Origin: Candidatus Nezhaarchaeales archaeon
GTDB lineage: Archaea > Thermoproteota > Methanomethylicia > Nezhaarchaeales > WYZ-LMO8
Assembly: GCA_038887515.1 (NCBI GenBank)
Contig: JAWAKK010000002.1
Span: forward strand, 310,803 to 374,802
Reading direction: 5' to 3'
DNA length: 64,000 nucleotides
The translations under genes were made by a program, and so were the position numbers. Below are positions 17,001 through 34,062 of the stretch, one piece after another. The notes beneath the pieces are model-generated. The model saw nothing but the letters and a program-made list of their open reading frames with translations, had not been told where the DNA came from and did no database searches. Each line of letters begins with the position of its first letter. Position 1 is the first letter of the stretch.

Positions 17001-17308
17001 AACGTCCCGACGCTAATTATTTAGGCGAATAACCACTTTGGCTGTTGCTGTTAGATATTTTACCGCTTCTTTGGGCAATAACGCTCACTTTATACTTAAA
17101 GCTCTTGTACTTGTTGAGGTTCTCAAAACTTTTGCCCGCTTTAGTTCGCCAGGCAGAACTAATAAACCATAGCCTGATGTCCTATACCGATGTTATGGCT
17201 CAAGTAGTATTGGTTTAGATTAAGTTTATTATAAGGTTTTTCTGATCTTAACCTTCATTGGTATGATTTATTTTATTGTTCAGGCATTACTTCTACCGGT
17301 GTTTGGTT

Positions 17309-18502
17309 ATGGTTATTAAGTGCATAACAAATGGCGTTTTTTATGTAGGCGTTGACGATTTGGGGCTCGACATTTTTGAGTCTCTGTGGCCGTTACCTCA
17401 TGGAGTTTCCTATAATAGCTACCTAATTATAGGCCGTGAGAAGACGGCTTTAATAGATACTGTTGATGCTAGGTGCTCTCAAGAGTTTTTAGACAAAGTA
17501 ACCGAAGCCCTTAGAGATCGAGAATTAGACTACATCGTTTTAAATCACATGGAACAAGACCACAGCGGCTCTCTTCCAAGAGTCTTGGAGGCATACCCTG
17601 ATGCAACCGTCGTCGGAACCCCTATGACCACAAATATGGTAAAGAGTTTTTACGGTGTAACGTGCAGGAGTATGGCTGTTAAGGACGGCGATACAATAAA
17701 TCTTGGAGGCAAGACTCTAAAGTTCATTCACGCTCCTTGGCTCCACTGGCCTGAAACTATGGTCACCTACCTCCTTGAAGATCGCATACTCTTCACTTGT
17801 GACGCTTTTGGATCTTTTGGTGCACTGAGAGGCAAGCTGTTCGACGAAGAGATTGATATGAGCCTTTACTTGGATGAAGCTAAGAGGTACTTCTCTAACA
17901 TAGTAGCTCCAGTAGCTGACTACGTACTAAAAGCTATAGAGAAAATTGAAAATTATGGATTAGAAATAAATGTTTTAGCTCCAAGTCATGGACCTCTGTA
18001 CAGGAGACCTCACGAAATAATTAAGTCCTATGCAGATTGGAGTAAGCCAGTGCTAAAGCCGAAGGTCGTAATAGCTTATAGCTCTATGTATGGCAACGTG
18101 AAGAAGATGGCCCAGGAGATCGCTAAGGGAGTTGATAGTAAGGGGGTCTTACCAATCCTAATAGACCTAGCAAGAACGCACATAAGTTATGTGTTGAAAG
18201 AAGTCATTGACGCGCCATCAATAGCCGTGGGATCTCCAACATATGATAATACCGTACATCCGCATGTAAAGATGTTCATCGAATACCTTACGATAAAAAG
18301 AATAAAGCAACGCAACATGGGCGTATTTGTCGCGTATGCTTGGGGTAGCAATATTCATAAGAGAATAGTCGAAATGCTTATGGCTCAAGGTAATGATATC
18401 GTAGAGCCTGTTATAGCAACTAGAGCATCCCCGACTGAAGAAACTTTAAAGCAATGTAGGGAGCTCGGCGAAAAGTTAGCTGAAAAGAGCGCCAAATTTT
18501 AA
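17309..18502 (+). CDS. fprA: Flavodiiron protein (FprA/ROO)
   Basis: YNSYLI, HMEQDHSG, HWPE, CDAFG, PSHG, SMYGN flavodoxin motif. Confidence 0.92.
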   Translation: MVIKCITNGVFYVGVDDLGLDIFESLWPLPHGVSYNSYLIIGREKTALIDTVDARCSQEFLDKVTEALRDRELDYIVLNHMEQDHSGSLPRVLEAYPDATVVGTPMTTNMVKSFYGVTCRSMAVKDGDTINLGGKTLKFIHAPWLHWPETMVTYLLEDRILFTCDAFGSFGALRGKLFDEEIDMSLYLDEAKRYFSNIVAPVADYVLKAIEKIENYGLEINVLAPSHGPLYRRPHEIIKSYADWSKPVLKPKVVIAYSSMYGNVKKMAQEIAKGVDSKGVLPILIDLARTHISYVLKEVIDAPSIAVGSPTYDNTVHPHVKMFIEYLTIKRIKQRNMGVFVAYAWGSNIHKRIVEMLMAQGNDIVEPVIATRASPTEETLKQCRELGEKLAEKSAKF

Positions 18503-18605
18503 GTCCATGCTTTTTCATCCATCTTCGAAATGATAATATTATTTTCGGCAACGTAGGCCATAAATACGATACCAAGCTTATCAACAAGCCCCTTACAGGA
18601 AGTAG

Positions 18606-18680
18606 TGCGGCCGCCGGGATTTGAACCCGGGTCGCAGGCTCGGGAGGCCTGTGTCCTAGTCCAGGCTAGACGACGGCCGC
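18606..18680 (-). tRNA. tRNA-Gly(CCC)
   Basis: GCGGCCG/CGGCCGC acceptor, CAGGC-CTCCCGA-GCCTG. Confidence 0.96.
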
Positions 18681-18789
18681 TTCTAAGGCTTCTTAAATTT
18701 GGAGGTGTGGTTTAAGCTTTGCTTTGATGTTTGTCTGTGAAGCTAGATTTTTATTTTTTTGCGTTCGTTGTTTGTTTAGGTGCCCATGA

Positions 18790-19308
18790 ATGGGAGAAGA
18801 TTGGTTTGACGAATGGTTTAATATATCGAGAAAGAAGAGTCCCTTTGATAAGTTCTTTGAAGACACTTTTGATTTCGAAGAAATAATGAAAGAATTTGAA
18901 AGGTTCTTTAAGGAAAGCGGGGCTAGGTCTTTCGTTTACGGTTTTAGTGTGACCATGGGCCCCGACGGCAGGCCTGTAGTTAGAGAATTCGGTAACATTA
19001 AACCTTCGAGTCGAGGATTTGTGATTAACGAGGAAGTGGAGCCTCTAATAGATGTTATTGAAGAAAGGGACGTGATAAAGGTATGTGCAGAGATACCTAG
19101 CGTCAACAAAGAGGATATTAAACTTAGGCTGACAGATGACGGTAAACTGATAATTTCGGCCAATACCCCCCAAAAGAAGTACTATAAAGAAGTTGAGCTT
19201 CCAGCCAAGGTAAACCCAGAAAAGGCTAGAGCAACTTACAAAAACGGCGTATTAGAGGTAGTGCTCGAGAAAGTTGAGAAGAAAGGGAAAAGTATAACAG
19301 TAGAGTGA
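18790..19308 (+). CDS. hsp20: Small heat-shock protein Hsp20
   Basis: VYGFSVT.GPDGRP.VREFGN, EPL.DV, ATYKNGVLEV. Confidence 0.93.
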   Translation: MGEDWFDEWFNISRKKSPFDKFFEDTFDFEEIMKEFERFFKESGARSFVYGFSVTMGPDGRPVVREFGNIKPSSRGFVINEEVEPLIDVIEERDVIKVCAEIPSVNKEDIKLRLTDDGKLIISANTPQKKYYKEVELPAKVNPEKARATYKNGVLEVVLEKVEKKGKSITVE

Positions 19309-19345
19309 GATTTTAGAGTCTAACCCCAAGTATGGCGGGTCCGCT

Positions 19346-19792
19346 ATGATCACTAAACGCAGGGAGAAGAAGAGTAGAAAGATGAGGGGATCGAGGGTCT
19401 GTGGATGGGGTAGGACAGGCCAACACAGAAAGCATGGAGGGAAGGGCGGTAGAAGGGGTTCAGGTTTACACAAACATAAATGGACTTACATGGTTAAGTA
19501 CCTCCCGGATTACTTCGGCAAACACGGGTTTAAGAGGCCTAAGTGCCTGCTTAAAGCTATAAAGCCCATAAACGTTGGGTATCTATGCGAGATAGCAGAT
19601 AAACTCGTCGAACTAGGTCTAGCTAAAATTGAAGGTGAAATGTACGTAATTAACATAGAGAAAATAGGTTACAACAAAGTCCTTGGGGAAGGCAAGGTAA
19701 CTAAACCACTTCACGTGGTAACACCGTTAATAAGTGAAGTTGCCAAAGAGAAGATAGAAGCGGCCGGAGGTAAAGTCGTAGTAGTAGAGTAG
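19346..19792 (+). CDS. rpl15: 50S ribosomal protein uL15
   Basis: KKSRKMRGSR.CGWG..GQHR, KVLG.G, EKIEAAGG. Confidence 0.96.
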   Translation: MITKRREKKSRKMRGSRVCGWGRTGQHRKHGGKGGRRGSGLHKHKWTYMVKYLPDYFGKHGFKRPKCLLKAIKPINVGYLCEIADKLVELGLAKIEGEMYVINIEKIGYNKVLGEGKVTKPLHVVTPLISEVAKEKIEAAGGKVVVVE

Positions 19793-19818
19793 AATTTATG
19801 TAGGCAAGGTAGAGCGAG

Positions 19819-21174
19819 ATGGTTAATGTTCGTAGCATAATAGAAGGCGCGGCTAAAGTAGTCCCAAGGGTTCAGAGGCCTGTAAGGAAAGTTGGTTTTG
19901 GGGAGAGGATCCTTTGGACTACCATAGCTCTTACAGTTTTCCTAGTAATGGGTCAGATACCTCTCTACGGTATACCAAGAGAGAGTCCATCTTTTCAGCA
20001 AACGATTTTCAACGTAATATTCGCTGCTAGGCGTGGTACCTTACTTGAACTAGGCATAGGTCCGATAGTTACTGCCGGATTAATAATGCAGATCCTAGTA
20101 GGTACGAAGATAGTAAGACTTGACTTAACTAATCCTCGTGACCGAGCACTTTTCACGAGCTCTCAAAAAGTCTTAACATTGATAGTCACAGCAATAGAGG
20201 CTGCTGCCTCGGCCTTAGCGTACAGGTTCGTTGGAAGTGCATTGACGCCGATTGTCGTATTCGTCCAGTTATTTGTTGCAACCATTCTGCTTATGCTTTT
20301 AGACGAACTCATAGACAAAGGTTGGGGTATAGGTAGCGGGATAAGTCTGTTCATTGCTGCCGGCGTAGCTCAACACATTTTTTGGTTCTGCTTCAGTCCC
20401 ATACCAGTTAGAGAGAATGGTGGACCCTTAGGCATATTCCCAGCTTTAATATCTTACGCTATGAATGGGAAGGATTTATGGAGCGTCGTGATAGGTAGCC
20501 CTGAGAATCCTTGGTTACCGACGCTTACGGGATTTATAGCAATGGTCGTTATGCTCGTATTAATAGTATACCTTGAGGGGATGAGGGTTGAAATCCCCAT
20601 AGTCTATTCAAAGTATGGAGGGTTTAGAGCTAAAACTCCTCTGAAGCTTCTATACGTGTCAAACATTCCAGTAATATTTTTCGGAGTCGTAGCTGCAAAT
20701 CTCCATATGCTCGCTAACTTAACTAATAACCCATTCATAATAGGTATAAGTAATGCCTTCACAGCACCACATGGAATACTTCAAGCACTTCAAAACCCTC
20801 TGCACACGTTAGCCTACATCTTGCTTATGTGCTCCATATGTGCCCTCCTGGCTCTGGCTTGGGTCGAGGCAGCTGGCATGTCTGCTAGGACCCAAGCGGA
20901 AAACATCATAAGGTCCGGACTTCAAATACCTGGATTTAGAAGTGCCCCATCAGTTATTGAGCAGTATCTAGCTAGATACATCCATACACTAACATGGGTT
21001 AGCGGCATAATAGTAGCATTAATAGCCGCTTTTGGCGACATACTTGGAGTCTTAGGGGGCGGCATAGGGATACTCTTATTGGTCGGCATCCTATATCAGT
21101 ACTACCAAATATTGGCTAGAGAAAGAGCCCTAGAGATGTATCCAATGTTAAAACAGTTCTTAGGAACTGAGTAG
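19819..21174 (+). CDS. secY: Preprotein translocase SecY
   Basis: GTLLELGIGPIVTAG, GIGSGISLFI, LLYVSNIP, IPGFR. Confidence 0.97.
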   Translation: MVNVRSIIEGAAKVVPRVQRPVRKVGFGERILWTTIALTVFLVMGQIPLYGIPRESPSFQQTIFNVIFAARRGTLLELGIGPIVTAGLIMQILVGTKIVRLDLTNPRDRALFTSSQKVLTLIVTAIEAAASALAYRFVGSALTPIVVFVQLFVATILLMLLDELIDKGWGIGSGISLFIAAGVAQHIFWFCFSPIPVRENGGPLGIFPALISYAMNGKDLWSVVIGSPENPWLPTLTGFIAMVVMLVLIVYLEGMRVEIPIVYSKYGGFRAKTPLKLLYVSNIPVIFFGVVAANLHMLANLTNNPFIIGISNAFTAPHGILQALQNPLHTLAYILLMCSICALLALAWVEAAGMSARTQAENIIRSGLQIPGFRSAPSVIEQYLARYIHTLTWVSGIIVALIAAFGDILGVLGGGIGILLLVGILYQYYQILARERALEMYPMLKQFLGTE

Positions 21175-21678
21175 GTGATGCATGTGGAGTGGTTTCAAGG
21201 TTTAACTGATTGGCTTAGGGGTGCTCTAGGCCCGTTTACAAGCCCGCCGCTAAGTACCGTTTTCGTAGTACTCATATCTTTAGCAGTCAGTCTAGTAGCT
21301 ACTGGAGCTCAAAGACTTATGCTTGATGTAAAGATAATCAGACAACATGCACAAGAACTAAGCAAGTGGAGGAAAGAGCTCCTTAAAGCACAGAGAGAAA
21401 GAGACATAAAGGCTATAGAGAAGCTAATGAAAAAGAAGCCTTATATAGATAAACTCCAAGCAAGGTATACCGTGCAAACGATGAAGCCTGCGATCATTTA
21501 CATGGTCCCACTGTTCATTCTTTATTGGCTCTTCATAGGGGTATTTGACAAACCGGTCGTCTACTTACCCCTTATAGGGACGCCAGTACCTTTCTGGATC
21601 TGGTACTTTATTACTTACAGCGGGTTTTATCCTATCCTACAGAGAGCTTTAAATGTAGATTTTCAATCCTCCGACTGA
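21175..21678 (+). CDS. DUF106/EMC3-TMCO1 family membrane insertase
   Basis: TM-coiled coil-TM topology, MKP, WYF; conserved position after secY. Confidence 0.82.
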   Translation: MMHVEWFQGLTDWLRGALGPFTSPPLSTVFVVLISLAVSLVATGAQRLMLDVKIIRQHAQELSKWRKELLKAQRERDIKAIEKLMKKKPYIDKLQARYTVQTMKPAIIYMVPLFILYWLFIGVFDKPVVYLPLIGTPVPFWIWYFITYSGFYPILQRALNVDFQSSD

Positions 21679-21679
21679 G

Positions 21680-21967
21680 GTGGTTACTGTGGTAAGACCA
21701 GGACTCAGGGGGAAACCTCATAAGCTCGTTAGAACTCCAGGTGGAAGACTTGTGCGAAGACCAGTCGAACCCAAGAAAAAAGAAGCTAAGTGCGCATGGT
21801 GTCACGAAGAGCTCCATGGAGCTCCAGCTTTATCAAAGACAAATATAAAAAAGTTGCCGAAAAGCAGTAGGAGACCTGAAAGACCCTATGGCGGCTACAT
21901 ATGTCCAAGGTGCTTAAAGATGGGGCTTATTAGATCGGTGATTAAATCCGCTTCAATATCGACATAG
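21680..21967 (+). CDS. rpl34e: 50S ribosomal protein eL34
   Basis: RTPGGR, CxxC, RPERPYGGYIC. Confidence 0.95.
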   Translation: MVTVVRPGLRGKPHKLVRTPGGRLVRRPVEPKKKEAKCAWCHEELHGAPALSKTNIKKLPKSSRRPERPYGGYICPRCLKMGLIRSVIKSASIST

Positions 21968-22042
21968 TGCTATGTAAAGTTCATGACATAAAAAGCTGAA
22001 GTCAGCAGAGTTTATAAATGAACTAGCTAAGCTAAAGAGTTT

Positions 22043-22591
22043 ATGAAGCTCGTGATAGCTATAAGTGGCAAACCCGGTGCCGGTAAAACAACTTTTGCGA
22101 AGGAAATAGCATACTTGTTTGACCTGAGGTACGTATCCTCCGGAATGTTATTTAGACGCTTAGCTGAGGAGAGGGGGGTTAGCTTAGTAGATTTCCATAA
22201 ACTTGCAGAAAAGGAACTAGAAATAGACAGGACGATTGACAATAAAGCAATAGAGGAAGCTCGAAGAGGAAATGTAGTCGTTGAGGGACATCTTGCTGGC
22301 TGGATTTTACATGATTTAGCGGACCTTAAAATATTCTTCACCGCACCACTAGAAGTCAGGGCTATGAGGGTTGCAGCTAGAGACTGCATACCTTATGAGG
22401 AGGCTCTAAAAGAGCTTAAGCTTAGAGAGGAGAGCAACAAGCTTAGAGCTAAAGTAGTGTATGGCTTCGATTTAGAAGACCTCTCGATCTTTGACGTGAT
22501 CTTTAATACGAATAGGCTGAGTAAGGAAGTTATATCCGAAACATTAAAAACCCTAATCTCAAAGTTCATAGAGCACCGGGCTACAGGGTGA
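22043..22591 (+). CDS. cmk: Cytidylate kinase
   Basis: ISGKPGAGKTT, SSG.LFR, VVEGHLAGW; between L34e and L14e. Confidence 0.92.
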   Translation: MKLVIAISGKPGAGKTTFAKEIAYLFDLRYVSSGMLFRRLAEERGVSLVDFHKLAEKELEIDRTIDNKAIEEARRGNVVVEGHLAGWILHDLADLKIFFTAPLEVRAMRVAARDCIPYEEALKELKLREESNKLRAKVVYGFDLEDLSIFDVIFNTNRLSKEVISETLKTLISKFIEHRATG

Positions 22592-22597
22592 TAAGAA

Positions 22598-22882
22598 GTG
22601 CCGGCTATAGAAATAGGTAGGATATGTGTTAAGAATGCTGGCAGGTTCGCTGGAAGGAAGTGCGTCATAATCGACGTAATTGATGAAAACTTTGTCCTAG
22701 TGACAGGACCAAAGGAACTAACAGGTATCAAGAGGAAGAGGTGCAACATTAAACATTTAGTGCCAACGCACGAGAAAATAGAGGTAACAAAGGGAGCTAG
22801 TGACGAAGAGGTGAAGGCAGCCCTCGAAAAAGCTGGTAAAGTAGAGTTTATGAAAGAAAAAGTCTCCCCGATAACTCCATAA
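22598..22882 (+). CDS. rpl14e: 50S ribosomal protein eL14
   Basis: [31 protein letters not shown]. Confidence 0.96.
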
Positions 22883-22907
22883 ACTCCTTCTTTCAATACA
22901 TTTTCTG

Positions 22908-23912
22908 GTGAAGCAAGTGGGTGTACTTATTAAAGCTGAGGATACCACCGACTATAGTTATGGTTGCCCTCCAGACCTTAGACCTATCGAGCTTCACATA
23001 GATTTGGGCATAATAAACCTTGACAAGCCTTCAGGCCCTACAAGTCATGAGGTTACATCATGGGTTAAGAAGCTCATCGGTGTTGATAAAGCCGGACATG
23101 GTGGAACCCTAGAGCCCACATAAGGGCGGGGAAATCCGAGAGTTACAGGCGTATTACCTATTGCTCTAGGTAGAGCACGAAAGATCCTTCGATACATTGT
23201 TCACTCAGACAAAACCTACGTCTGTGTGATGGCTCTTCACGGGGTGGTCTCTGAAGACAAAATAAGAGAGGTGTGCGAGGAGTTCGTGGGGCCGATATAT
23301 CAGAGACCGCCGCTCAAGGCTTCGGTTGAAAGGAGGTTGAGAATTAGGAGGGTATATTCAATAGATGTGCATGAAGTCGTTGGCAAGCTAGTGCTAATGA
23401 CTGTACGCTGCGAGGCTGGAACGTACATACGGAAGTTGTGCCACGATATAGGCGAAGTCCTTGGCGTAGGAGCTCACATGGCCGAGCTTCGAAGGATACA
23501 GACGGGCCCCTTCACTGAAAATGAGAATTTAGTGACCATGCACGAGCTTCATGAAGCAGTAATAGCATGGAGGGAGTACAACAATGGGGGGCTCCTTAGA
23601 AAAGTTGTTTTGCCAGTAGAGTACACTGTGAGGAATATGCCAAAGATCTATATAAGGGATTCAGCCGTTGACGCTATATGTCACGGTGCACCTTTAGCCG
23701 CCCCGGGTGTAGTTCATCTTACGGACGATATTGTGAAAGATAAGCATGTAGCAATAATGACTCTAAAGGGTGAGCTTGTTGCTATAGCAAAAGCACTTAT
23801 GAGTTCGAACGAAATAATGGAGGTAGAAAAAGGGATCGTAGCAAAACCGATACGAGTAATAATGAAGCCAGGAATATACCCTAAGCAGTGGGGAAACACT
23901 AGGCTTGTATAG
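22908..23912 (+). CDS. cbf5: H/ACA pseudouridine synthase Cbf5; two exons (22908-23112, 23134-23912) with a 21-nt BHB intron
   Basis: LDKPSGPTSHEV, GHGGTL|DP restored by removing 23113-23133; GTYIRKLCHD, PUA domain. Confidence 0.93.
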
Positions 23913-23953
23913 AAAGGATAATTAAAGAGGGGGAAACCATCATTATAATCAGA

Positions 23954-24057
23954 GCCGGGATACCCTAGTGGTAGGGGGCAGGCCTGGAGGGGCTTTAAGC
24001 CCCATTGAGCCTGTGGCCCTCTGGGCCGCGCGGGTTCGAATCCCGCTCCCGGCGCCA
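23954..24057 (+). tRNA. tRNA-Ser(GGA) with 18-nt intron at 37/38 (23990-24007), CCA encoded
   Basis: GCCGGGA/TCCCGGC acceptor, CAGGC-CTGGAG..A-GCCTG, long variable arm. Confidence 0.93.
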
Positions 24058-24136
24058 GTAACCTGTTTTTCGAAGCTTTTCTCCGAAACCCCTTTTCTTG
24101 AGCACTAGTCCCTTAGTAAGGGGGCCCTTTAGGTCT

Positions 24137-25387
24137 CTAGACCTTTATTTCATATACTTTCTTCATTTTTTCAAGATTGACAACGCTTTCAAGATTCCCT
24201 CTCTTTATGACTCTAAAAGCATGCTCTATCAAAATCTTATAAAATTCGCAGTTTGGGCTTTTGCTGAAGAGAGAGCCCTTTTCAGCATAAACCTCTGCGG
24301 GGCATGGACTACCACATATATTCCTATAAACACAGTCTTTGCATTCCTCAATTCTCTCCACAATCCTTTCCCTAACAATTCTAAAACTCTCCCTCAACCT
24401 TTCAGGGTTGTTTACAACATGTAATGGGCTCCTAAATTCCTCCATCCCGATAAATTCGCTGCACGGAAAAACTCCATCAGGAGTTATAGCGAAAAATCTT
24501 CTCCCACCACCACATGGTGAAATATCGCACTGCAAAACTCTTGAATAAGGAGCAACGATGCCTAGAACTATGTTCGCAAAGTCACCTATAACGATTCTTT
24601 TACCGCTTTTTGTGTATTCTATTGCTTTTTCAACAGCCTTCACGAATTCGATTGCAGCCTCTTTTGGATCAGCTCTAAGGTTTCTCCCTCCCTCGCTCGT
24701 CCCCCTCACGGGGTTCATTAAAACAAGTCTCACTTTTCCAGCGAGAAAATCTATGAGGTCACTTAGCTGTGAGTAGTTAAGCCTCGTAATCGTGGTAATC
24801 GTATAAAATTCTTTATAGCCTTTAAACCACTCAAGGATCTTGCAGATCTTATCGAAGTGACCTCTCCCTCTTAAATAATCTTCTATCTCTCTTGAAGGAG
24901 AGTCAAATGAGACCCCAACGTTAACCTTTTTCTCCTTGAAGAAATCAGCGTCTTCTTCCTCCATTAAAAAACCATTCGTTTGAATCCCAAACTTCATTTG
25001 TTTGTGGTCGTCTATGATTTCGTATAATTGTTTTTTCATCAGTAAGGGTTCTACCCCATGAAAAACAACATTTCTGATTCCTAGCTCCTCAAACTTCTTC
25101 AGTAATGATCTTAAGTCCTCAGAACTGAACTCCCTCCTCCTCTTTCTCACCCTCTCTGGGATGTAGCAGTAAGGACAGTTTGTATTACATCTTTCTGTTA
25201 TATTCACGTAAACCGTGTTAAAATCGACTTCGAACCTATATCTCTCCATTTTTAACTTAAGCTCTCTGCCGATTTTCTCGTATAATTTAAGCGCGTTTTC
25301 AGGCATTTCAGAGTCATAAATGACCCAGAAGTTTGTTTCAGGATCTATCAGCACCTTAAAGTCATCAATGACTTGTACTCTGCTCAT
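24137..25387 (-). CDS. cbpB: Peptide-modifying radical SAM/SPASM maturase, CbpB-like
   Basis: TERCNTNCPYCYIPE, FHGVEP, DISPCGGGRRFFA, FPCSEF, CKDC...CGSPCPAE; adjacent peptide gene. Confidence 0.78.
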   Translation of the reverse strand: MSRVQVIDDFKVLIDPETNFWVIYDSEMPENALKLYEKIGRELKLKMERYRFEVDFNTVYVNITERCNTNCPYCYIPERVRKRRREFSSEDLRSLLKKFEELGIRNVVFHGVEPLLMKKQLYEIIDDHKQMKFGIQTNGFLMEEEDADFFKEKKVNVGVSFDSPSREIEDYLRGRGHFDKICKILEWFKGYKEFYTITTITRLNYSQLSDLIDFLAGKVRLVLMNPVRGTSEGGRNLRADPKEAAIEFVKAVEKAIEYTKSGKRIVIGDFANIVLGIVAPYSRVLQCDISPCGGGRRFFAITPDGVFPCSEFIGMEEFRSPLHVVNNPERLRESFRIVRERIVERIEECKDCVYRNICGSPCPAEVYAEKGSLFSKSPNCEFYKILIEHAFRVIKRGNLESVVNLEKMKKVYEIKV

Positions 25388-25416
25388 AACAACACCCAAA
25401 AATAAAAATGAGAGGA

Positions 25417-25530
25417 TTAAAATGGAGAGTCATCGGCCATTATGTAATGCGTTAATCCCCCACCTACCTCGCATTCAAACTGGAACGTTAACTCCATCTT
25501 CTCCTTCCTCCTTTTGGATGGATTATTCAT
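25417..25530 (-). CDS. cbpA: 37-aa RiPP precursor peptide, CbpA-like (MNNPSKRRKEKMELTFQFECEVGGGLTHYIMADDSPF)
   Basis: Below the ORF-track cutoff; ends 29 nt upstream of the maturase; C-x-x-x-G-GL-T-HYI-M matches the remembered CbpA C..GTGLSHYIL core. Confidence 0.75.
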   Translation of the reverse strand: MNNPSKRRKEKMELTFQFECEVGGGLTHYIMADDSPF

Positions 25531-25968
25531 CCATATCATTTATCCTTAGTATTTAAGCCTTTTCGTAAAAGAACTCAAAAGAGGTGTAAACTCATTAAAA
25601 AGGTTTGTAGCTTTTGATTCCTGATCGTGGATTGCATGAGTTTTATAAAGTCTATGGGAGATGGGCATTTTATGTGTTACTTATGCCTAGGGGATCATTA
25701 TGATTTTTAGTACATTCATTTCCCCGGAGACCGCCACATAATTTGTGCTTTCTAAATCTAGCACCGCAACATTTTGTGCTAACTGAAATCCAAAGTAAAG
25801 TCATGGGGACAGGTTTTTAGCATCGAGTTTTGTGCGAATTTCGGCAAAGCCCGTTCTATCGAGTACACCTTGCAAACAAGCTAAAAATTTAAGATTAAAA
25901 TCGAATATGTGAAGTGATTATTTGGTTTAAGCATTAAAGTTATGATGGTTGTAGCGTGGTGAGACATA

Positions 25969-26842
25969 ATTAGTACCGATGTCGTTATTGTAGGCAGTGG
26001 TGCTGGAGGCAGTATAGTATCTTACGACCTTGTTAATAGAGGGCTTAAGGTGATGCTGGTGAGGAGATAGCCCCGAAAAGGCTAGAGAAGGCTATCGCCC
26101 TGTACTATCGTCAATTGAAGTTCAGAGGTGCATGTGCATAGGTGGGATAACGCTCGTCTCTCTAGGAAACATTTCCATTACTGATGGTATAATTGAGAGG
26201 TTCAGAGAGCTTGGCATCGACTTGAAGAGGGAGGAGACGAAGTTTGTAGGTTAATGCGGGTTGCCGAAGTTCCACGAAGTAAATTACCGCCATTCACCAT
26301 GAAGTTCGTAGAGGCTGCTGAGAAGTTGGGAGTAAAAGCAAGACCGATGCCTAAGTCGGTTGACTTCAATAAGTGCATTGGTTGCGGCAAGTGCGCTTAC
26401 GGTTGTACCAAAGGGTGCGAAGCTCACAACTCTAGACCTCATTAGGAAAAACTTACAGCAAGGATTGACGTTGCCACGTAGATTCAAGGTGGAAAAGCTA
26501 TATCGACAGCATGGAGGGTTGGTCGTGGAAGGTTTTGCGAGTGGAAGTATGGTAAAGGTCAAGTGTAAAGCTCTAGTCTTGGCTGCTGCTCTTGAAACTC
26601 CAAGACTTTTAACTCAAATCGACGATGAAAACATTAGGAAAAAACCTCTTCATTGATCCTTTTGTAGCCATAGGCAGACCCTACAATGGGCCCTCCGCAA
26701 GCGATGGAATTCAGATGCCCGCCTACATTGATTGCCACGACTTCCTACTTTCTCCTCATTACTCGGGTCTTCTACAGTTTCAGCTGATTGCAAGGAGCGT
26801 AGATTGCAAAGGTAGAGGAATCGCCTCTGTAATGGTCAAGGT
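25969..26842 (+). pseudogene. Degraded paralog of the GMC-type oxidoreductase at 29125
   Basis: DVVIVGSGAGGSIVS, KSVDFNKCIGCGKCAYGC, ALETPRLL, LFIDPF spread over several frames with stops; truncated at MVKV. Confidence 0.85.
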
Positions 26843-27037
26843 GGTAGAATCATTGCAAGGGGATTTGTGAGCGCCATTGTCTACTTATCATTCCTACTCA
26901 TTCTTAGCGCTATTTCTCCGCAAGCTCTAGCCATACTACCCCTAGGCCTGCTCTTTACTTTAATATTCGTGATTATAGGAGTCTACGAAACTTACAGAAA
27001 GAGGAGTTTAGCTAGGGAGTTGAAGGAGGGTTCTTAG
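26843..27037 (+). pseudogene. 3' fragment of a paralog of the HTH-membrane gene at 33598
   Basis: GRIIARGFVSAIVYLSFLL...IGVYETYR aligns with GNRILPRGFISAIAYLAFLL...IGIYETYR. Confidence 0.8.
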
Positions 27038-27201
27038 GAGGGTAACTCGAAGACGAGAAAGCAACCTAATTTTCACGGTCGTCATTTAAAGCTTTAGAGA
27101 AAACTCGTTGAGCATGATAACTCTCACTTACTAGCTCCTTATCTACCTAAGAAAAGTTTTAAACTCGTTCTCGTTTAAGTCGATGCGCTTGAAGAGATCG
27201 A

Positions 27202-27253
27202 GCCCCGGTAGCTCAGTCTGGTTAGAGCACTGCCTTGGTATACCGAACAAAGA
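27202..27253 (+). pseudogene. tRNA-Thr(GGT) 5' half plus intron-like sequence, no 3' half
   Basis: 27202-27240 identical to 34257-34295; TACCGAACAAAGA vs TATCAAACAAAGA; then diverges. Confidence 0.85.
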
Positions 27254-27705
27254 AACTCCTTCCCTTTTTAATCTAGAAGTAATGAGCTTACTACGAGAGA
27301 GCAAGATCTACCATTATGAAGAGAGGCCTGAGCCTTACAGGCGGATTATAGCTGGATTCTGTCACAATGGTGACCACTTGACTGGCTCGAGTCTCCCAGT
27401 TGACAGGTTGAGTAGTATATGCTGAGGAAGCCTGTTTCAAAGGTGAAAAGGAAAGCTTATAATACCCAACTTCTTTGAAGTCGGAGAGAATGAAAATGAT
27501 TAAGGTGTATATAATCATGTTTACTCTTGCAAATACCCCCGAGATCATTCGTAGGATACATAGTGTCCCACTTCTCGAATATTAGTAAGCATTTCATCCA
27601 GCAAGTGAAGCCATTAAACGTCTCTTCGACATATAAGAGGGGCTTTAAGGTGCACTTACGTTAAAATACAAGGCTGATAAAGTGAATTAACCTGAGGAGG
27701 GTTTA

Positions 27706-28236
27706 GTGTTGAAATATCGTGCACTCTTTATTGGTAGATTTCAACCTTTTCATAATGGACATTTACATTCCATCAACCACATCCTCGAGGAGTTTGATGA
27801 AGTGGTAGTTATTATTGCAGCAGCTCAGTACAGCTTTACGACGGATAATCCTTTTACAGCTGGCGAAAGAATAGAAATGATACGTGCAGGTCTCGGTAAT
27901 GTTTATGAAAGAGTTTACATAGTTCCAGTTGACAACATACCAAGCAATTACGAATGGCCGAGACACGTTCTCTCATACTCCCCAAGAATTCACGTAGTTT
28001 ACAGCAACAATGAGTTCGTCAGACTTTTGTTTAAGAACTACGGGATTGAGACCCGAGAGACTCCTCTTCTGCCTGGTGTTAGTGGATCTATTGTTAGAAG
28101 GTTCATGGTTGAAGATGGTGAATGGGAGCGGCTAGTGCCGGTTGGTACGGCTGAAGTGATAAAGGAGGTTAAAGGTGTTGAAAGGTTAAAGCTTCTCTGG
28201 AAACTCTCACCTAAAATAGCTGGCGAGAGATATTAG
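27706..28236 (+). CDS. nadM: Nicotinamide-nucleotide adenylyltransferase
   Basis: GRFQPFHNGH, NPFTAGERI, SGS.VR. Confidence 0.93.
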   Translation: MLKYRALFIGRFQPFHNGHLHSINHILEEFDEVVVIIAAAQYSFTTDNPFTAGERIEMIRAGLGNVYERVYIVPVDNIPSNYEWPRHVLSYSPRIHVVYSNNEFVRLLFKNYGIETRETPLLPGVSGSIVRRFMVEDGEWERLVPVGTAEVIKEVKGVERLKLLWKLSPKIAGERY

Positions 28237-28368
28237 GTTCTAAACTACTCAATCTGATCTTGTATAACGCTCCTAAACAGCTTCCTCCCCACTAGGGGTT
28301 GTGTTGATAGGCTGGGACCTCAAAGAAAGGCTATTTATTCTGCCCTTTACGATAACAATAAGTGTGAG

Positions 28369-28980
28369 TTGCCTTTGGCTAATAACGTGGAAAAGATGCA
28401 AGATAACAAGTCTATGCCTAATATCGTTTCGATTAAGCTTATTATATTATGCTCAGTCGTATTTGGTTTAGGTTTAGTCCTAGGCCACTTTCTTGTACCA
28501 TCCTTAACAGGTACAGAAATCGTGGAAGAACTTACTGAGTACTTTCGTCCTCTAGTAGAATTTCCTCCACATGTATTTGTCCTCTTAATATTTGCTAATA
28601 ATTTCTTCAAAACTCTAATTCTGGGTCTTATTCTTGGGATTCTTATAGCCATCCCACCTATGATTTTTGCTTTTCTTAATGGCCTAATCATCGGACTAGT
28701 AAGCTCTATGGTTGCTGAAAGAAGTGGGGCGCTGTTTGTGCTTTTAGGCATCTTGCCGCATGGAATCCTAGAGATACCAGCGCTCTTAATAAGCTGTGCT
28801 TTGGGCGTTAAAGTTGGCTTAACAGTTTACGACAATATCAGGAATGGGGGCTTTGGCGTTGGAATTGTAATTAGAAAATTTGTTAAAACTTACTTAAAAG
28901 TAGTTGTTCCATTACTACTAGTAGCAGCTATAGTCGAGACTTACGTAACCCCTCTTCTGCTACACTTTATACATCAATAG
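28369..28980 (+). CDS. SpoIIM/DUF95 family membrane protein
   Basis: IFANN, NGLIIG, ILPHGILEIPA, AAIVETYVTP. Confidence 0.88.
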   Translation: MPLANNVEKMQDNKSMPNIVSIKLIILCSVVFGLGLVLGHFLVPSLTGTEIVEELTEYFRPLVEFPPHVFVLLIFANNFFKTLILGLILGILIAIPPMIFAFLNGLIIGLVSSMVAERSGALFVLLGILPHGILEIPALLISCALGVKVGLTVYDNIRNGGFGVGIVIRKFVKTYLKVVVPLLLVAAIVETYVTPLLLHFIHQ

Positions 28981-29124
28981 TACGCAATCCAACAAGAGTT
29001 AGACTAGTAAGAGTCGTGCGATTATTAGCTTACTTAGAGGCTTCAGTCAAGTTAAAGTTAAAAATATCAATTATGATCTTAAAGACTGTCAGGCTCAAGA
29101 ATCACCATAAATGCGTGATGGATT

Positions 29125-30384
29125 ATGAAAGCGGACGTAGTAGTCGTAGGGAGTGGAGCTGGTGGAAGTATAGTTTCTAACGAGCTTGTAAACAGAGGTT
29201 TAAAGGTGGTTCTAGTAGAGAAAGGCGAAGATTTAGGACTTGAAAAGGCTTATTTGGGCTTTCGCTCGACGCTGTCATCAATAGACTTACTTAGATGCGA
29301 AGCTGTTGGAGGTACGACCCTCATATCCCTCGGGAACATGCTTATAACCAATACAATTATCGAGAAGTTTAAGGAAGTCGGTATAGATTTGACGGCTGAG
29401 GTCGATGAGGTGCGTAAGCTCATGCACGTAAAAGATATTCCAGTAGATAAGTTGCCGCAGTTTGCTGTGAAATTCATCGAGGTTTCTAGGAGTATGGGAT
29501 TAGATGCAAAGGTTATGCAGAAATCAATAGACTTTAACAAATGTATAGGTTGTGGTGGCTGTGCTTATGGCTGTGCAAGGGATGCAAAACGTACAGCGCT
29601 TGATCTGATAAGGAGAAGCCTTAGACAAGGATTGGTGTTACTAAGCTCATTTGAAGTTAACAGGGTACATAGATCTCAGGGTCAGGGAGAAGAGATAGTA
29701 GTTGAGGGAGTCGTTAGAGGTGAGAAGCTCAAGGTTATTTGTAAGGCTCTAATTCTAGCCGCAGGCGCTCTTGAAACCCCTAGGCTTTTAATTCAATTAC
29801 ACGACAACGATAACATCGGGAAGCACCTCTTTGTAGATCCATTCTTAATCGTAGGCGGACCTTATAGCGGACCTCCAGCAAATGAAGGAATTCAGATGGC
29901 GGCCTATATTGACTATCAAGACTACATGCTTTCACCTAATTTCTCGGGCGCCTTACAATTTCAGTTGTTATCAAAAAAGGTTGACTATCGAGGGAAGAGC
30001 CTTGCATCAATAATGGTAAAAGTAGGCGACGAAGGGAGCGGGAGGGTATGGCCCGATGGAATTGTCGAAATACACATGACAAGGAGGGATCTAAAAGTTC
30101 TTGAGAGAGGAGTAAAAGAAGCCAAGAACATACTTTCCGAGTTAGGAGTAAAGGATGAAGACGTAGTTGTAACCCCTATAAGGGGGGCGCATCCAGGTGG
30201 GACAGCGGCACTAGGTTACGTAGTATCTCGAGATTTAAGCATAAGCGGTTGTGATGGTGTATTCGTGGCCGACGCAAGTCTAATACCACCTCTGCTTGGA
30301 AAACCACCAATGCTGCTGATAATGGCCTTAGCTATGAAAGTATCAAAGAAAGTATGTGAATACTTAGGGAAATATGCGAGCTAA
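29125..30384 (+). CDS. GMC-family FAD oxidoreductase with ferredoxin-like Cys motif
   Basis: DVVVVGSGAGG, CIGCGGCAYGC, AAGALETPRLL, AHPGGTA, FVADAS. Confidence 0.85.
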   Translation: MKADVVVVGSGAGGSIVSNELVNRGLKVVLVEKGEDLGLEKAYLGFRSTLSSIDLLRCEAVGGTTLISLGNMLITNTIIEKFKEVGIDLTAEVDEVRKLMHVKDIPVDKLPQFAVKFIEVSRSMGLDAKVMQKSIDFNKCIGCGGCAYGCARDAKRTALDLIRRSLRQGLVLLSSFEVNRVHRSQGQGEEIVVEGVVRGEKLKVICKALILAAGALETPRLLIQLHDNDNIGKHLFVDPFLIVGGPYSGPPANEGIQMAAYIDYQDYMLSPNFSGALQFQLLSKKVDYRGKSLASIMVKVGDEGSGRVWPDGIVEIHMTRRDLKVLERGVKEAKNILSELGVKDEDVVVTPIRGAHPGGTAALGYVVSRDLSISGCDGVFVADASLIPPLLGKPPMLLIMALAMKVSKKVCEYLGKYAS

Positions 30385-30475
30385 AAGTCCACAACTCTTA
30401 GGCAACTCCATAAGATTAGCGCAAGAAAGGTTGAGGAGGTTTTGTCCCTAAGGAGCTTCGTCGTTTCATTCACCT

Positions 30476-30913
30476 TTATTCTTCCTTGTATAAGGAGTTT
30501 ACTAAGTTTTTTAACGTTGAGAGGACGTTAGGATTCTCTTTCAGGTAACACATTAATTTCAGTATCCTGCTGACCGTTAGATCGTGAAGCTCGTGTTCAA
30601 TGTTGCAGGCATCATCTTCAGCTATATCGCCAGGGAGCTTCAGGAACGTCATCAAAAATTCTTTAAGGGCCTCATGCCTTCGATATATGTTCTCCGCAAC
30701 TTTGACGCCCTCTTCTGTTAAGGTTATCATTTCATGCCTAACATACTTAACGAGACCCTTACGGGCAAGTCTATCGAGGTATTCAACTATGCTGGGGGGC
30801 TTAACGTTCAGTATTTCAGCTAATCCTTTAACTCTTATAACCCCCTCCCTCTTCCACAACAAGTATAGTGCTTCTAGGTATTCCTCTTCTCTTCGAGTCT
30901 TCCTCGGTAACAA
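30476..30913 (-). CDS. DtxR/MntR metal-dependent transcriptional regulator
   Basis: EEYLEALY, LNVKPPS, LTEEG, RRHE, DACNIEH. Confidence 0.92.
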   Translation of the reverse strand: MLPRKTRREEEYLEALYLLWKREGVIRVKGLAEILNVKPPSIVEYLDRLARKGLVKYVRHEMITLTEEGVKVAENIYRRHEALKEFLMTFLKLPGDIAEDDACNIEHELHDLTVSRILKLMCYLKENPNVLSTLKNLVNSLYKEE

Positions 30914-31119
30914 TTCCTATCAGCTCTTGGCGAGATACAACATCTCTCTTTTTAGAGTCTAAACTAGCCCTAAAATTTTTTGAAATGTTACGAAGAACAA
31001 CTATAATTAATAATACAGGAGTTATCAACGACTTGCAGAACTAAATAAATAGGGCCCCGAGCCTTCACTACGAACATTATTTGGTGGCTTGCTTTAGAAT
31101 TTGAAGTTAACAAATTGTA

Positions 31120-31185
31120 GCCGAGTCAGACGGCCTAGCGCTGCCCTCACCGATTCGGGAGGGGTCTGGGGTCTTCATTCTCGGC
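31120..31185 (-). ncRNA. C/D-box sRNA candidate
   Basis: Minus strand GCCGAG-A-ATGAAGA-CCCCAGACCCCTC-CCGA-ATCG-GTGAGGG-CAGCGCTAGGCCGT-CTGA-CTCGGC with 6-bp terminal stem. Confidence 0.72.
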
Positions 31186-31878
31186 TCGACAAGGATATCC
31201 TCGACTTCTTCTTATGAGTTTTTCTTAAAGCGTGTAAATGGGCCAACAATGTAACGTTTACTGGCATCGTCTACGAATTGCAGAGCAGCACATCAAATCC
31301 GTTTCTTAATAATGGATTGCAACTTCATGCTTCATGGTCTATTAACTCTGCTACTAACTTGATCGCATCGAGTTTCTGAAAGATAGCTAAAAGGTAGAAG
31401 CCTAAGCAAAAGGTTGAGCTTACTTACATTTTTAGTCTTTATGAGGTTAGCTACGGACCCTTTGAGTATACCGGCTCCATTACGCTACTTGTCATTTTTA
31501 CGTCAGGTACAACGTTTACTGGCTTCTCATTTTTACGGTCACGGCTTTAGTTTTACTAGGCTTATAGAATGAACAATTTGGTCTCAACTCTAACCCTAAT
31601 TTACACTTACCCATGTTATAGTACTTACATACATTACACTTCATTTCACACCACCTCAAACGAGTTCTCAAATATTGATTCGAGGACTATAAGTTTGAGA
31701 TTCCCCATGTTACTTCAGCGTTTAGAGTCGACAGAGGCATCTATAGGCTTCTTATTTCGAAGAAAGAAGACTAGTTAATAAAAAGTTTACCCACCTTTTC
31801 TACGAAGAAGGTAATTATCTACACTGAAGAGCAGAGAGCAATAAAGAAGAGTTTTTTTATTATATTCAGAGGGGATTC

Positions 31879-32598
31879 ATGTACTTTGATGCTCACTGCC
31901 ACCTTCACGAGATCGACGAGGAGGAGATTAGAGGGTTTAAGGACTATGTACTAGTGGCTGTATCAGATGACCTAGAATCCTCTAAGAAGAGCCTGAGTCT
32001 CGCCAAAAAATATGATAACGTAATACCTTGCTTTGGGGTGCATCCCTGGGCCATCGATAAAGCCTCTACGAGTAATATTGATGAGATAGAAAGGCTTGTT
32101 TCAGAGACCGGTTGTTGTGTACTAGGTGAAGTAGGACTCGATAAGAAGTTTGTACCCCAAACGTTCTCTAGACAGTTGAAGTTCTTTGAAGGGTTTATAG
32201 ACATAGCGGTTGAGTACGATGTACCGCTTAACATTCATGCCGCTGGCGCATGGCGCGAAGTATACCAAATACTTGTGAAAAGGGATGTAGAAAAAGCTGT
32301 GATTCATTGGTATACTGGACCCCTCGACTTGTTAGAAGAATTAACAGCTAAGGGGTACTTTGTGACGATAAACCCTGCAGTGGAAGTACAAGAGAAACAT
32401 AGAAAAGTAGCGATAGAAGTTGACTTGAGGCATGTACTTGTTGAAAGTGATGCTCCCTACGAATACAGAGGATTGCGGCTCACGCCAAGGCTTATACCTC
32501 GGGTCCTTAAAATTTTAGCTGAAATTAAGGGTCTAAGACTAGAAGAAGTAAAAGCAACAGTAGAAGTCAACTTTAGGGGGCTTTTCAGGTACCGATAG
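31879..32598 (+). CDS. tatD: TatD family nuclease
   Basis: DAHCH, GVHPW, GEVGLD, HWY, ESDAP. Confidence 0.92.
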   Translation: MYFDAHCHLHEIDEEEIRGFKDYVLVAVSDDLESSKKSLSLAKKYDNVIPCFGVHPWAIDKASTSNIDEIERLVSETGCCVLGEVGLDKKFVPQTFSRQLKFFEGFIDIAVEYDVPLNIHAAGAWREVYQILVKRDVEKAVIHWYTGPLDLLEELTAKGYFVTINPAVEVQEKHRKVAIEVDLRHVLVESDAPYEYRGLRLTPRLIPRVLKILAEIKGLRLEEVKATVEVNFRGLFRYR

Positions 32599-32640
32599 GA
32601 TTCTTTGACCTTCAAAACATGAACTTTAAGGTCCATAGGC

Positions 32641-33519
32641 CTAAATTTTTCTTATACATTCTTTAGCTAATTGATAAGCATCTTCAACGTTACTGGGATC
32701 CCTTATATCCAAGTAAGCAGCTTGTTTATTAAAGTAAGGAGAACCTTTCCTCGAGAATATTGTTATCAGTCTACCGTTGTGTAAGACCATGTATCCTTCA
32801 TCACAGGGTTCATGTCCTCTGATGACGATCCTAACTCCTAAACTCTTTAAGAATTTTTCAGTAACGTCAGGACCAAACAGGTAACCAGCACCTCTAGGTG
32901 ACGCGCCTATACCATTAATAGTCATGGGGTCGTTCCACAAAAGTTCTTCTAAGAGACTCATGTTTTGATGGGCATTAACGAGCGATTTTATGGTTACGGG
33001 CTGTGTAGGGACCCCTCCATGAACCATGAAAAGAGAGCCCTCTAAGAGAGCGCAAGCGTAAAGATTTCTTAGACAACCCATTATCGACTCGTAGATTTCT
33101 CTCCACGAAGTTCCGTATAAACGGCTTAAGTGCCACGGAAAGTCGTGAGGATATACGGGTAGCTCTTGAGGACCCTCGTGATTGCCCATTAATAAGATTA
33201 CGGAATGTGGGCTTTTGAGCTTGATGTTAAATATCTCGTAGACGACGCGAGGTGCCTCAGACCCTCTATCTACGTAGTCTCCGAGAAAGACTACTATTGC
33301 TTCCTTTAAGTCGGTACCCGATATTATCTTAGTTAAGCTCTCGTAGTCGCCATGGATATCTCCTATAACTACAATCCTCTTGGCGCTATCCTTTATCTTT
33401 GCTAAGGAGCCGTGGGCTTCATAGCCTCCAACGTCAACTCTTTTTCTTTCCTCTATTAGTAAATTCCTTACTTTAGAGGACAGTTCAATGAATTCTTCAG
33501 TTGTTGGTAGTGAAGACAT
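32641..33519 (-). CDS. PPP-family Ser/Thr protein phosphatase
   Basis: GDIHG, GDYVDRG, GNHE, HGG, LLWNDP, SPRG, RGHE. Confidence 0.92.
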   Translation of the reverse strand: MSSLPTTEEFIELSSKVRNLLIEERKRVDVGGYEAHGSLAKIKDSAKRIVVIGDIHGDYESLTKIISGTDLKEAIVVFLGDYVDRGSEAPRVVYEIFNIKLKSPHSVILLMGNHEGPQELPVYPHDFPWHLSRLYGTSWREIYESIMGCLRNLYACALLEGSLFMVHGGVPTQPVTIKSLVNAHQNMSLLEELLWNDPMTINGIGASPRGAGYLFGPDVTEKFLKSLGVRIVIRGHEPCDEGYMVLHNGRLITIFSRKGSPYFNKQAAYLDIRDPSNVEDAYQLAKECIRKI

Positions 33520-33597
33520 TCTTCTTCACATTCCTTGCACTTAAACGTTAATTGGAGTACTAAACTATATGTCTGCTGCACCAGAGGGTTTAGATAC

Positions 33598-34062
33598 ATG
33601 AAGGAGGGTTTTGACTTAATCAAGGTGCGTAAGGAACTTAAGGGAAATACGTTGAAGCTTTACCTCTATTTAACCAAGAGAGCTAGCGGGTACACCATTG
33701 ACGAGATGAGATTCTTTAGCGGCTTTTCTAATAAGGCATTGATAAACCAATGCCTTGCAGAAATGAAGCGACTTGGAATAGTAGAGAAGCGGGAAGACCG
33801 ATATTATGTTCCTAGACCGATAGCAGAAGCTGTAGATTACGTACTCAAACATTACGTCAAGGTAGGCAATAGAATTTTGCCAAGAGGTTTTATAAGTGCC
33901 ATAGCTTATCTAGCATTCCTACTAGTGTTCTTTTCAATATTTCCTTCAACCCTCCTACTGTTACCCTTCGGTGTAGTGATGAGCTCCATTTTCATAGCCA
34001 TCGGAATTTACGAAACATATAGGCTTAGAAAGTTCGTTAAAAAGGTTAAAGAGCCAAAGTAG
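33598..34062 (+). CDS. Winged-helix protein with two C-terminal TM helices
   Basis: LKGNTLKLYLYL wHTH-like N-terminus followed by two hydrophobic segments. Confidence 0.65.
   Translation: MKEGFDLIKVRKELKGNTLKLYLYLTKRASGYTIDEMRFFSGFSNKALINQCLAEMKRLGIVEKREDRYYVPRPIAEAVDYVLKHYVKVGNRILPRGFISAIAYLAFLLVFFSIFPSTLLLLPFGVVMSSIFIAIGIYETYRLRKFVKKVKEPK

Follow-up and report, generated by a model that had tools for sequence, protein, structure and literature searches.

A very small open reading frame (ORF) stands ahead of a radical S-adenosylmethionine (SAM) gene, immediately behind a tRNA-Ser gene, in the genome of the hot-spring inhabitant Candidatus Nezhaarchaeales archaeon; what does this pair encode, where did it come from, and what could it make? 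The locus is found on contig JAWAKK010000002.1 (GenBank assembly GCA_038887515.1), of which a stretch of 64,000 nucleotides, positions 310,803 to 374,802 of the forward strand, was analysed; this stretch is called the window, and all positions are counted from its first letter. An earlier interpretation made from the letters alone, the sequence-only reading, had proposed a two-gene unit consisting of a 37-residue precursor similar to CbpA and a maturase similar to CbpB. We consider it probable that the locus is a working copy of the CbpA/CbpB system, in which a 26-residue and nearly leaderless peptide is paired with a SPASM-type twin-cluster enzyme; the cassette would have come laterally from the Archaeoglobaceae, and its product may carry a thioether and may have a role towards corrinoid or cobalt. 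The CbpA/CbpB family is already catalogued and named in the databases, and the window copy leaves this classification unchanged. The points of interest are the transfer across phyla and the minimal, almost leaderless precursor.

The enzyme matches TIGR04163 ('peptide-modifying radical SAM enzyme CbpB') with 442.6 bits (E 1.3e-132), over the curated cut-off of 375, and the match spans profile positions 10-426 of 428. The translation contains all three motifs by which the enzyme had been likened to CbpB, in the forms ITERCNTNCPYCYIPE, DISPCGGGRRFFAIT and ICGSPCPAEV. By a scan with the same model the gene is single-copy in the host genome. The best named relatives are proteins of the Archaeoglobaceae, 68-72% identical, which already bear the NCBI name CbpB. 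The runner-up families are PapB (102.7 bits), TIGR04083 (96.2), TIGR04084 (94.2) and the SCIFF maturase (90.6), the PapB and SCIFF scores being far under their own cut-offs of 340 and 425; they are followed by YhhB (83.4), anSME (76.1), the mycofactocin maturase model (75) and AmcB (74.9). The radical SAM domain of Pfam is found with 94.3 bits. In an alignment of 30 CbpB sequences Cys67, Cys71 and Cys74 (CxxxCxxC) are invariant, and so are C287, C292, C309, C349, C358, C362 and C380 of the C-terminal part, where at least 90% of the sequences also have C352; seven invariant residues among eight C-terminal cysteines fit the two auxiliary clusters of a SPASM-type enzyme. In the AlphaFold2 model (predicted local distance difference test, pLDDT, 91.9) a sheet of three strands (residues 3-24) is followed by a long helix (30-52), by the barrel and by a cysteine-rich C-terminal domain. 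The nearest solved structure by sequence is the thioether-forming CteB (E 1.1e-18) with anSME second (E 1.2e-12). CteB is also the nearest fold, with a template modelling (TM) score of 0.70-0.72, followed by TigE, anSME (TM 0.67-0.68), SkfB, ChlB and SuiB. An atlas look-up with the first 60 residues of CbpB gave scores of 0.85-0.88, under the useful range, and the PqqD-tagged cluster at rank 16 is a mere hint. Elsewhere in the window a second radical SAM gene (11636-12712, plus strand) matches the CbpB model weakly and in part, with 49 bits (G000:C2:322444-323397).

The small ORF, translated, matches TIGR04164 ('modified peptide precursor CbpA') with E 2.3e-4 and 20.6 bits, under the cut-off of that model. 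It is the sole match at E <= 10 in a six-frame TIGR04164 scan of the whole 1.29-Mb genome, in which 15 candidates were scored, and it keeps the core motif; the proposed kinship with CbpA stands. The hidden Markov model (HMM) search that had been called for thus finds both products, the enzyme above its cut-off and the peptide below it. In five of five other genomes the best TIGR04164 match is again the ORF upstream of cbpB, with scores of 20.6-33.2 bits, all below the cut-off.

Homologue searches gave nine true loci, eight archaeal and one of a Thermodesulfobacteriota bacterium, and a tenth match that is weak and unrelated. Genome searches added 31 loci, which brings the archaeal set to 40 with the window included; 36 of these are distinct (four loci were counted twice). 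The absence of a conserved peptide beside homologues of the enzyme had been named as something that would tell against the sequence-only reading; the reverse was found, as a peptide ORF with G-L-T-H-Y lies directly upstream of cbpB in all 40 archaeal loci, and the bacterial locus has the same upstream small ORF. cbpA and cbpB form a real unit, and their pairing goes beyond chance. An E-C pair precedes G-L-T-H-Y by five or six residues in 39 of the 40 archaeal loci. The exception, L039 (G106:C10), has a peptide frame without E-C that a stop cuts to 22 codons, through a frameshift, an assembly error or decay. An alignment of 32 archaeal peptides shows no variation at the E, the C, G-L-T-H-Y or the terminal P-F, and the S before P-F is present in at least 90%. 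The window core, ECEVGGGLTHY, fits the pattern of one Cys followed by G-x-G-L-[ST]-H-Y, and the core of the bacterial peptide (L015), C...GTGLSHY, keeps S-H-Y. The acidic core FECEVGGGLTHY had been regarded as the mark of a divergent variant; it is not peculiar to the window, as near-identical counterparts (MAVAFQFECEVGGGLTHYIMGEDSPF and similar) occur in six Archaeoglobi genomes.

The full frame of the small ORF (25417..25539, minus strand) has 40 codons from its first ATG, with its stop codon at 25417-25419; the 37-residue form begins at the second ATG (25530), and a third ATG lies at 25497. The ORF list and the sequence agree with the two-gene unit that had been described, the 37-residue form is exactly as quoted, and the ATG of cbpB (25387) follows the stop of the small ORF by 29 nt. 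An alternative cbpB start, TTG at 25399, would give 420 residues. Several observations bear on the length of the precursor. A Met is found 6-8 residues before the Cys in 33 of the 40 archaeal loci, and the whole open frame has only 27-29 codons in eight of them. At the nucleotide level the Archaeoglobi loci are similar to the window (up to 70% over 1354 nt) between 24147 and 25485-25500, an interval that takes in cbpB and the final 26 codons of the small ORF; the similarity goes no further. Because conservation, nucleotide homology and the predicted interface with the enzyme all begin at the third ATG, the conserved gene is taken to start there (Table 1). Judged by its conservation, the precursor is a peptide of 26 residues, almost leaderless, and not one of 37, as had been claimed; the additional N-terminal residues have neither a counterpart in the homologues nor a predicted contact. 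About eight residues precede the Cys in the conserved peptide, and they are the predicted docking strand. The extension is either an unconserved 5' leader or a lineage-specific addition to the peptide.

Table 1. Position of the cbpAB cassette, its putative signals and its borders in the window.
Feature	Position	Strand	Description	Evidence
cbpA, conserved form	25417..25497	minus	26 codons and stop, MELTFQFECEVGGGLTHYIMADDSPF	TIGR04164 match, 32-peptide alignment, nucleotide homology, predicted interface
Optional N-terminal extension of cbpA	25498..25539	minus	contains ATGs 25539 and 25530	no counterpart in 39 other loci, no nucleotide homology, residues 1-12 outside predicted interface
Shine-Dalgarno-like purine-rich stretch GGAGGAAGGAG	25501..25511	minus	ends 3 nt before ATG 25497	read from sequence; putative function
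TATA-like box CTTAAATA	25550..25557	minus	about 20-27 nt upstream of ATGs 25530/25539	pattern at chance frequency, weak evidence
cbpB, radical SAM/SPASM peptide maturase, 416 aa	24137..25387	minus		TIGR04163 442.6 bits
tRNA-Ser(GGA) with intron, left border of inserted segment	23954..24057	plus		Rfam tRNA 51.8 bits; same-genus homology ends at 24057
Segment missing from same-genus genomes, about 1.8 kb	24058..25880	no strand		right border approximate only
Broken paralogue of GMC-type oxidoreductase gene	25965..26870	plus	marks the former neighbour of the tRNA	about 70% nucleotide identity to GMC gene of G005/G006

The host is Nezhaarchaeota-like by its SecY, which shares 77-81% identity with proteins that bear the names Candidatus Nezhaarchaeota, Nezhaarchaeales or Thermoprotei. 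Among 40 relatives of the host, from genus to class, no CbpB was found, and among 401 sampled genomes of its phylum two have it, one of which is the host itself; in the class Archaeoglobi it is present in 38 of 96 genomes. The window CbpB falls, in a maximum-likelihood tree built from 54 sequences, in a 12-row clade with Archaeoglobaceae sequences (Shimodaira-Hasegawa-like approximate likelihood ratio test, 98), and the other copy of the host phylum (L065) is placed elsewhere. Forcing the two copies together costs 200 log-likelihood units (p of the approximately unbiased test, p-AU, 2.4e-66; the test was chosen after the tree had been seen). Five genomes of the same genus (G001, G003, G004, G005 and G006) align with the window through cbf5 and the tRNA-Ser gene to 24057 and continue with a GMC-type oxidoreductase gene, without the cassette. 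Between the tRNA and the GMC gene these genomes have about 206-225 nt (G005, G006 and G003) or about 678 nt (G001), the gap of G004 not being sized; the corresponding distance in the window, from the tRNA to the broken GMC copy, is 1907 nt and includes cbpBA. The intergenic alignment with G005, G006 and G003 (56% mean column identity) is too weak to fix the right border of the insert. The lateral acquisition of the cassette, which the sequence-only reading had suspected, is well supported by this distribution, by the nesting within the Archaeoglobaceae and by the empty site; the donor group is apparently the Archaeoglobaceae, and the insertion apparently took place just after tRNA-Ser(GGA). 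When read by hand, this tRNA shows a long variable arm and, following position 37, an intron of about 18 nt. It is convergent with cbpB, whose stop codon lies 79 nt from the tRNA end, and the location directly behind a tRNA-Ser gene was correctly recognized. ARAGORN labelled the same gene 'Stop tta', which the hand reading shows to be wrong.

The interaction of the two products was modelled from both alignments together with SAM and three clusters, with peptide residues numbered as in the 40-residue ORF. The CbpB-CbpA complex received a score of 0.90, the best control 0.02; of the solved complexes 116 among 157 attain the 0.90 mark, as against 2 of 215 mismatched pairs. In the three runs 80% or more of the contacts are the same, and the partner has a pLDDT of at least 59. 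The predicted interface is formed by peptide residues 13-40 only, and residues 1-12 are without predicted contacts. In the prediction residues 17-21 (LTFQF) are placed next to residues 20-25 and 409-414 of the enzyme; the remaining peptide contacts the barrel and the region around C287/C292. The model supports binding of the CbpA peptide by CbpB. In the sequence of events that it suggests, the N-terminal LTFQF of CbpA would dock as an added beta-strand between the small N-terminal sheet of CbpB and its C-terminal tail, and the rest of the peptide would be threaded into the barrel above the SAM cluster. SAM would then be cleaved to the 5'-deoxyadenosyl radical, as expected from the family, and a hydrogen atom would be abstracted from the invariant G-L-T-H-Y; the single invariant Cys would finally be joined to that carbon in an intramolecular thioether, closing a ring of about 8-10 residues. 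That the product is such a Cys thioether ring, formed after SAM cleavage and hydrogen abstraction, is judged by analogy to have somewhat less than an even chance. It is the best guess because the closest characterized relatives by HMM score, sequence and fold (PapB, SCIFF and CteB) are thioether formers.

The sequence-only reading had noted that the genes for cobalt or cobalamin that usually accompany the family are absent. This is correct for the window copy, whose neighbours in the ORF family scan are Cbf5, the GMC-oxidoreductase pseudogene, an NMN adenylyltransferase and a SpoIIM-like protein. It is no oddity of this locus: seven archaeal loci have, among the ORFs scanned (67 of the 99 that reach 80 residues, with cbpB and mostly the outermost ORFs left aside), no member of a cobalt or cobalamin family. 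The neighbours of these seven loci are unrelated to one another, one locus having a heavy-metal P-type ATPase 3 kb away, and no protease or transporter gene was found next to cbpAB here or in the seven loci. The survey of archaeal neighbourhoods that had been suggested therefore gives a conserved peptide beside cbpB and flanking genes that are otherwise not shared. As the archaeal neighbours are unrelated and free of cobalt/cobalamin families, the bare two-gene unit is the normal archaeal state.

The link to vitamin B12 comes from the bacterium. In the one bacterial locus (1/1) cbpA is immediately preceded by a cobalamin riboswitch (RF00174, 73.4 bits); none was found in the nine archaeal loci scanned. 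In the window, Rfam finds only the tRNA between 22800 and 27800 at E <= 0.1, and no riboswitch over its whole length at the gathering score. The riboswitch on the bacterial homologue points to a role of the product in the handling of corrinoid or cobalt rather than as an antibiotic. The host genome, 94% complete, has two ORFs with a B12-binding domain, three permeases of the FecCD type (BtuC-like) and CbiM. A role in B12 assembly is unlikely in this host, since CobS, CbiB and the PduO-type adenosyltransferase were not found in that genome; if the system serves the supply of B12, it would therefore act in uptake or handling and not in assembly. A host that apparently uses B12 without the late assembly genes helps to separate a system that helps to make B12 from one that helps to obtain or handle it. 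A more speculative proposal, which we regard as doubtful, is that the product is an intracellular peptide cofactor or chaperone whose crosslinked ring offers Cys, His and Tyr to cobalt or a corrinoid, and that the cassette spread from the Archaeoglobi to a B12-dependent but non-assembling archaeon, where it aids the scavenging or handling of corrinoids. If so, the product would represent a functional class of ribosomal peptides that is new and common to bacteria and archaea.

The alternatives to a laterally acquired, working cassette with a 26-residue precursor concern its start, its origin and its activity. The precursor could be the longer form of 37 or 40 residues, translated from a leaderless mRNA and provided with a host-specific N-terminal leader. 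The TATA-like box lies at a distance from ATGs 25530 and 25539 that is expected for a leaderless archaeal transcript. The same pattern is not enriched over chance, with 120 occurrences in the window against 130 expected from shuffles; the extension is not conserved, its residues 1-12 are without predicted contact, and a GGAGG stretch stands ahead of the third ATG, all of which makes the longer form rather unlikely. (A scan for sigma-70 promoters and terminators stayed at chance level; the method is not applicable to archaea.) Vertical inheritance with repeated loss would agree with a composition that is not foreign and would be helped by the many relatives that are incomplete metagenome-assembled genomes. 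It is nevertheless very improbable, given the zero of 40 relatives and two of 401 phylum genomes with CbpB, two copies in the phylum that are not sisters, a window copy nested inside the Archaeoglobaceae and a site that is empty in five genomes of the genus. The transferred cassette may also be an inert passenger, silent or no longer functional in its host, as would suit its setting, a rearranged region that includes a broken GMC paralogue and a fragment of a tRNA, in a host without late B12 assembly genes. Against this, both frames are intact and every residue invariant in the family is kept; 24 of 34 cbpB strain variants, among those listed, are synonymous and 10 are not; and two hot-spring metagenomes of a second study contain contig fragments that match cbpB, the end of cbpA and the GMC pseudogene at 95-99% identity. 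An inert passenger is accordingly held to be improbable. Two metatranscriptome runs of the source study contained no cassette reads at about 3% sampling, which is too thin to count as a test.

With the pair accepted as a working CbpA/CbpB copy, its chemistry may still differ from thioether formation. The enzyme could form a C-C or C-O crosslink on the invariant His or Tyr, like those of cyclophanes, streptide or pyrroloquinoline quinone (PQQ), and leave free Cys, His or Tyr as ligands of a metal or corrinoid in a product that acts as a cofactor or chaperone. The invariance of T-H-Y equals that of the Cys, and the bacterial peptide retains S-H-Y; families that form cyclophanes score 65-83 bits. 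The whole peptide is conserved and has no leader, and the lack of an adjacent protease or exporter gene, here and in the seven archaeal loci, makes it more similar to PqqA and MftA than to an antibiotic precursor; the B12 riboswitch ahead of the bacterial homologue points the same way. Such a crosslink is possible rather than expected, as the thioether formers are nearest by HMM score, sequence and fold and a single invariant Cys suits a thioether donor. Oxidation of the Cys (or Thr) without any crosslink, as anSME turns Cys or Ser into formylglycine, would agree with the position of anSME as the second-best solved relative by sequence. It is quite improbable: the peptide contains no sulfatase-type C/S-x-P-x-R motif, and the thioether-forming families score higher.

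Several points weigh against the preferred reading, a laterally acquired CbpA/CbpB pair with a thioether product. CbpA misses the curated cut-off of TIGR04164 (20.6 against 35 bits), which we ascribe to a model that is too narrow rather than to a doubtful gene because the peptides of five other genomes also fall short. The SPASM model of Pfam gives no match to CbpB at E <= 10, and the SPASM assignment therefore rests on the cysteine pattern and the fold. The score of the complex is perhaps partly a memory of the solved peptide complexes of CteB and SuiB, and custom alignments and added ligands lie outside the calibration of the tool. The thioether-forming relatives are only about 20% identical, and the cyclophane formers (YhhB 83.4 and AmcB 74.9 bits) and anSME (76.1) score not far below them. 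With respect to origin, the sequence nearest to the window CbpB is P0002 (74-75% identity) and not one of the named Archaeoglobaceae proteins. Composition shows no foreign signal, with a guanine-plus-cytosine (GC) fraction of 0.396 in cbpB, 0.431 in the window and 0.38-0.45 in the Archaeoglobi loci, and likewise at third codon positions; it is uninformative, and the likely donors have a similar GC. The cassette is flanked by no direct repeat of the tRNA-Ser end and no att-like repeat, only by short repeats at chance level, and there is no integrase-like family among the 24 ORFs scanned from 17276 to 36880. Finally, the host lacks detectable CobS, CbiB and adenosyltransferase genes, as described above.

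Compared with known systems, the window pair resembles the CbpA/CbpB family in having an enzyme above the cut-off, a peptide gene directly upstream and the core C...G-x-G-L-[ST]-H-Y. The archaeal branch differs from the CbpA model by its E-C pair, an acidic tail ending in S-P-F, only about eight residues before the Cys and scores below the cut-off; unlike the one bacterial CbpA/CbpB locus, the surroundings of the cassette in the window and the nine archaeal loci scanned showed no B12 riboswitch. PqqA/PqqE and MftA/MftC also consist of a very short, fully conserved peptide beside a radical SAM/SPASM enzyme, with no exporter. CbpA shares the shortness, the conservation and the lack of an exporter but has another motif, and no further pathway genes stand beside cbpAB. 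The peptide-docking sheet at the N-terminus, the radical SAM barrel and the twin-cluster C-terminal domain are shared with CteB/CteA, the SCIFF system (PDB 5WGG/5WHY), and with the PapB ranthipeptide maturases. The likeness to CteB extends to the sequence and fold, in which it is the best solved relative, and to the peptide lying as an added strand in the CbpB model. CteB/CteA differs in its identity of about 20% and in the six cysteines of its peptide as against one, and the N-terminal domain of CbpB is cut down to three strands and one long helix. The nearest characterized archaeal enzyme among those encountered, CrpC of Methanococcus voltae, a radical SAM/SPASM enzyme with three [4Fe-4S] clusters, is outlined in PMC13692751 as installing ranthionine thioethers on CrpA, a substrate of the same cluster. 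By the description given there, CrpA is a large cysteine-rich protein, which sets it apart from the 26-residue, single-Cys CbpA.

The lack of a characterized product, of which the sequence-only reading had spoken, agrees with a literature search that found no paper on CbpA/CbpB or on a product, subscription journals and bioRxiv supplements being out of its reach; a term search for the system in the accessible text of the SPASM review PMC10114670 gave no match. CbpA/CbpB is a widespread pair of a peptide and a radical SAM enzyme. Since cbpAB moves alone between archaeal phyla, it must work without dedicated partner genes, and the bare two-gene unit with a 26-residue, near-leaderless precursor makes it a convenient minimal substrate for biochemistry.

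The stretch after the tRNA-Ser gene has been rearranged more than once. It contains two copies of a flavin adenine dinucleotide (FAD)-dependent oxidoreductase gene of the GMC type: the broken copy listed in Table 1, which is split into short ORFs, and an intact one at 29125-30384 (plus strand), which is followed by an MntR-like regulator, as in the relatives. G005 and G006 have one such gene, to which both copies show about 68-70% identity. Between them lies the NMN adenylyltransferase gene (27706-28236, plus strand), which is found elsewhere in the G005 and G006 genomes. A tRNA gene at 34257-34343 (plus strand) matches Rfam and was missed by ARAGORN; its upstream region and 5' half recur as a truncated second copy at 27140-27253 (plus strand). 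The tRNA part of this copy is nearly identical and its upstream part about 70% identical, and the piece is 88-94% conserved across the genus. A contig of run X3 (depth 21.5, with only 26 letters on its shorter side) joins 24060 to 24138 and skips the 77-nt spacer between the tRNA and cbpB. Further contigs diverge at 24060, where the tRNA gives way to unrelated sequence. All of these contigs may represent strain variants or tRNA genes of other organisms.

Genes of mobile elements are found near cbpAB in two of the homologue loci. In L011 a TnpB/Cas12f-like fragment (5387-5740) lies directly upstream of cbpA, and in L008 a Rep-like ORF (9636-10250) lies 2.4 kb downstream of cbpAB. The cbf5 gene on the other side of the tRNA-Ser gene (22908-23912, plus strand) is one frame broken by an in-frame TAA at 23121-23123, within a candidate intron at about 23114-23134. 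The RNA folds there into a bulge-helix-bulge, and removal of 21 nt restores the conserved GHGGTLDPRVTGVLPIALGRA motif; the interruption is presumably an archaeal mRNA intron like that of crenarchaeal cbf5.

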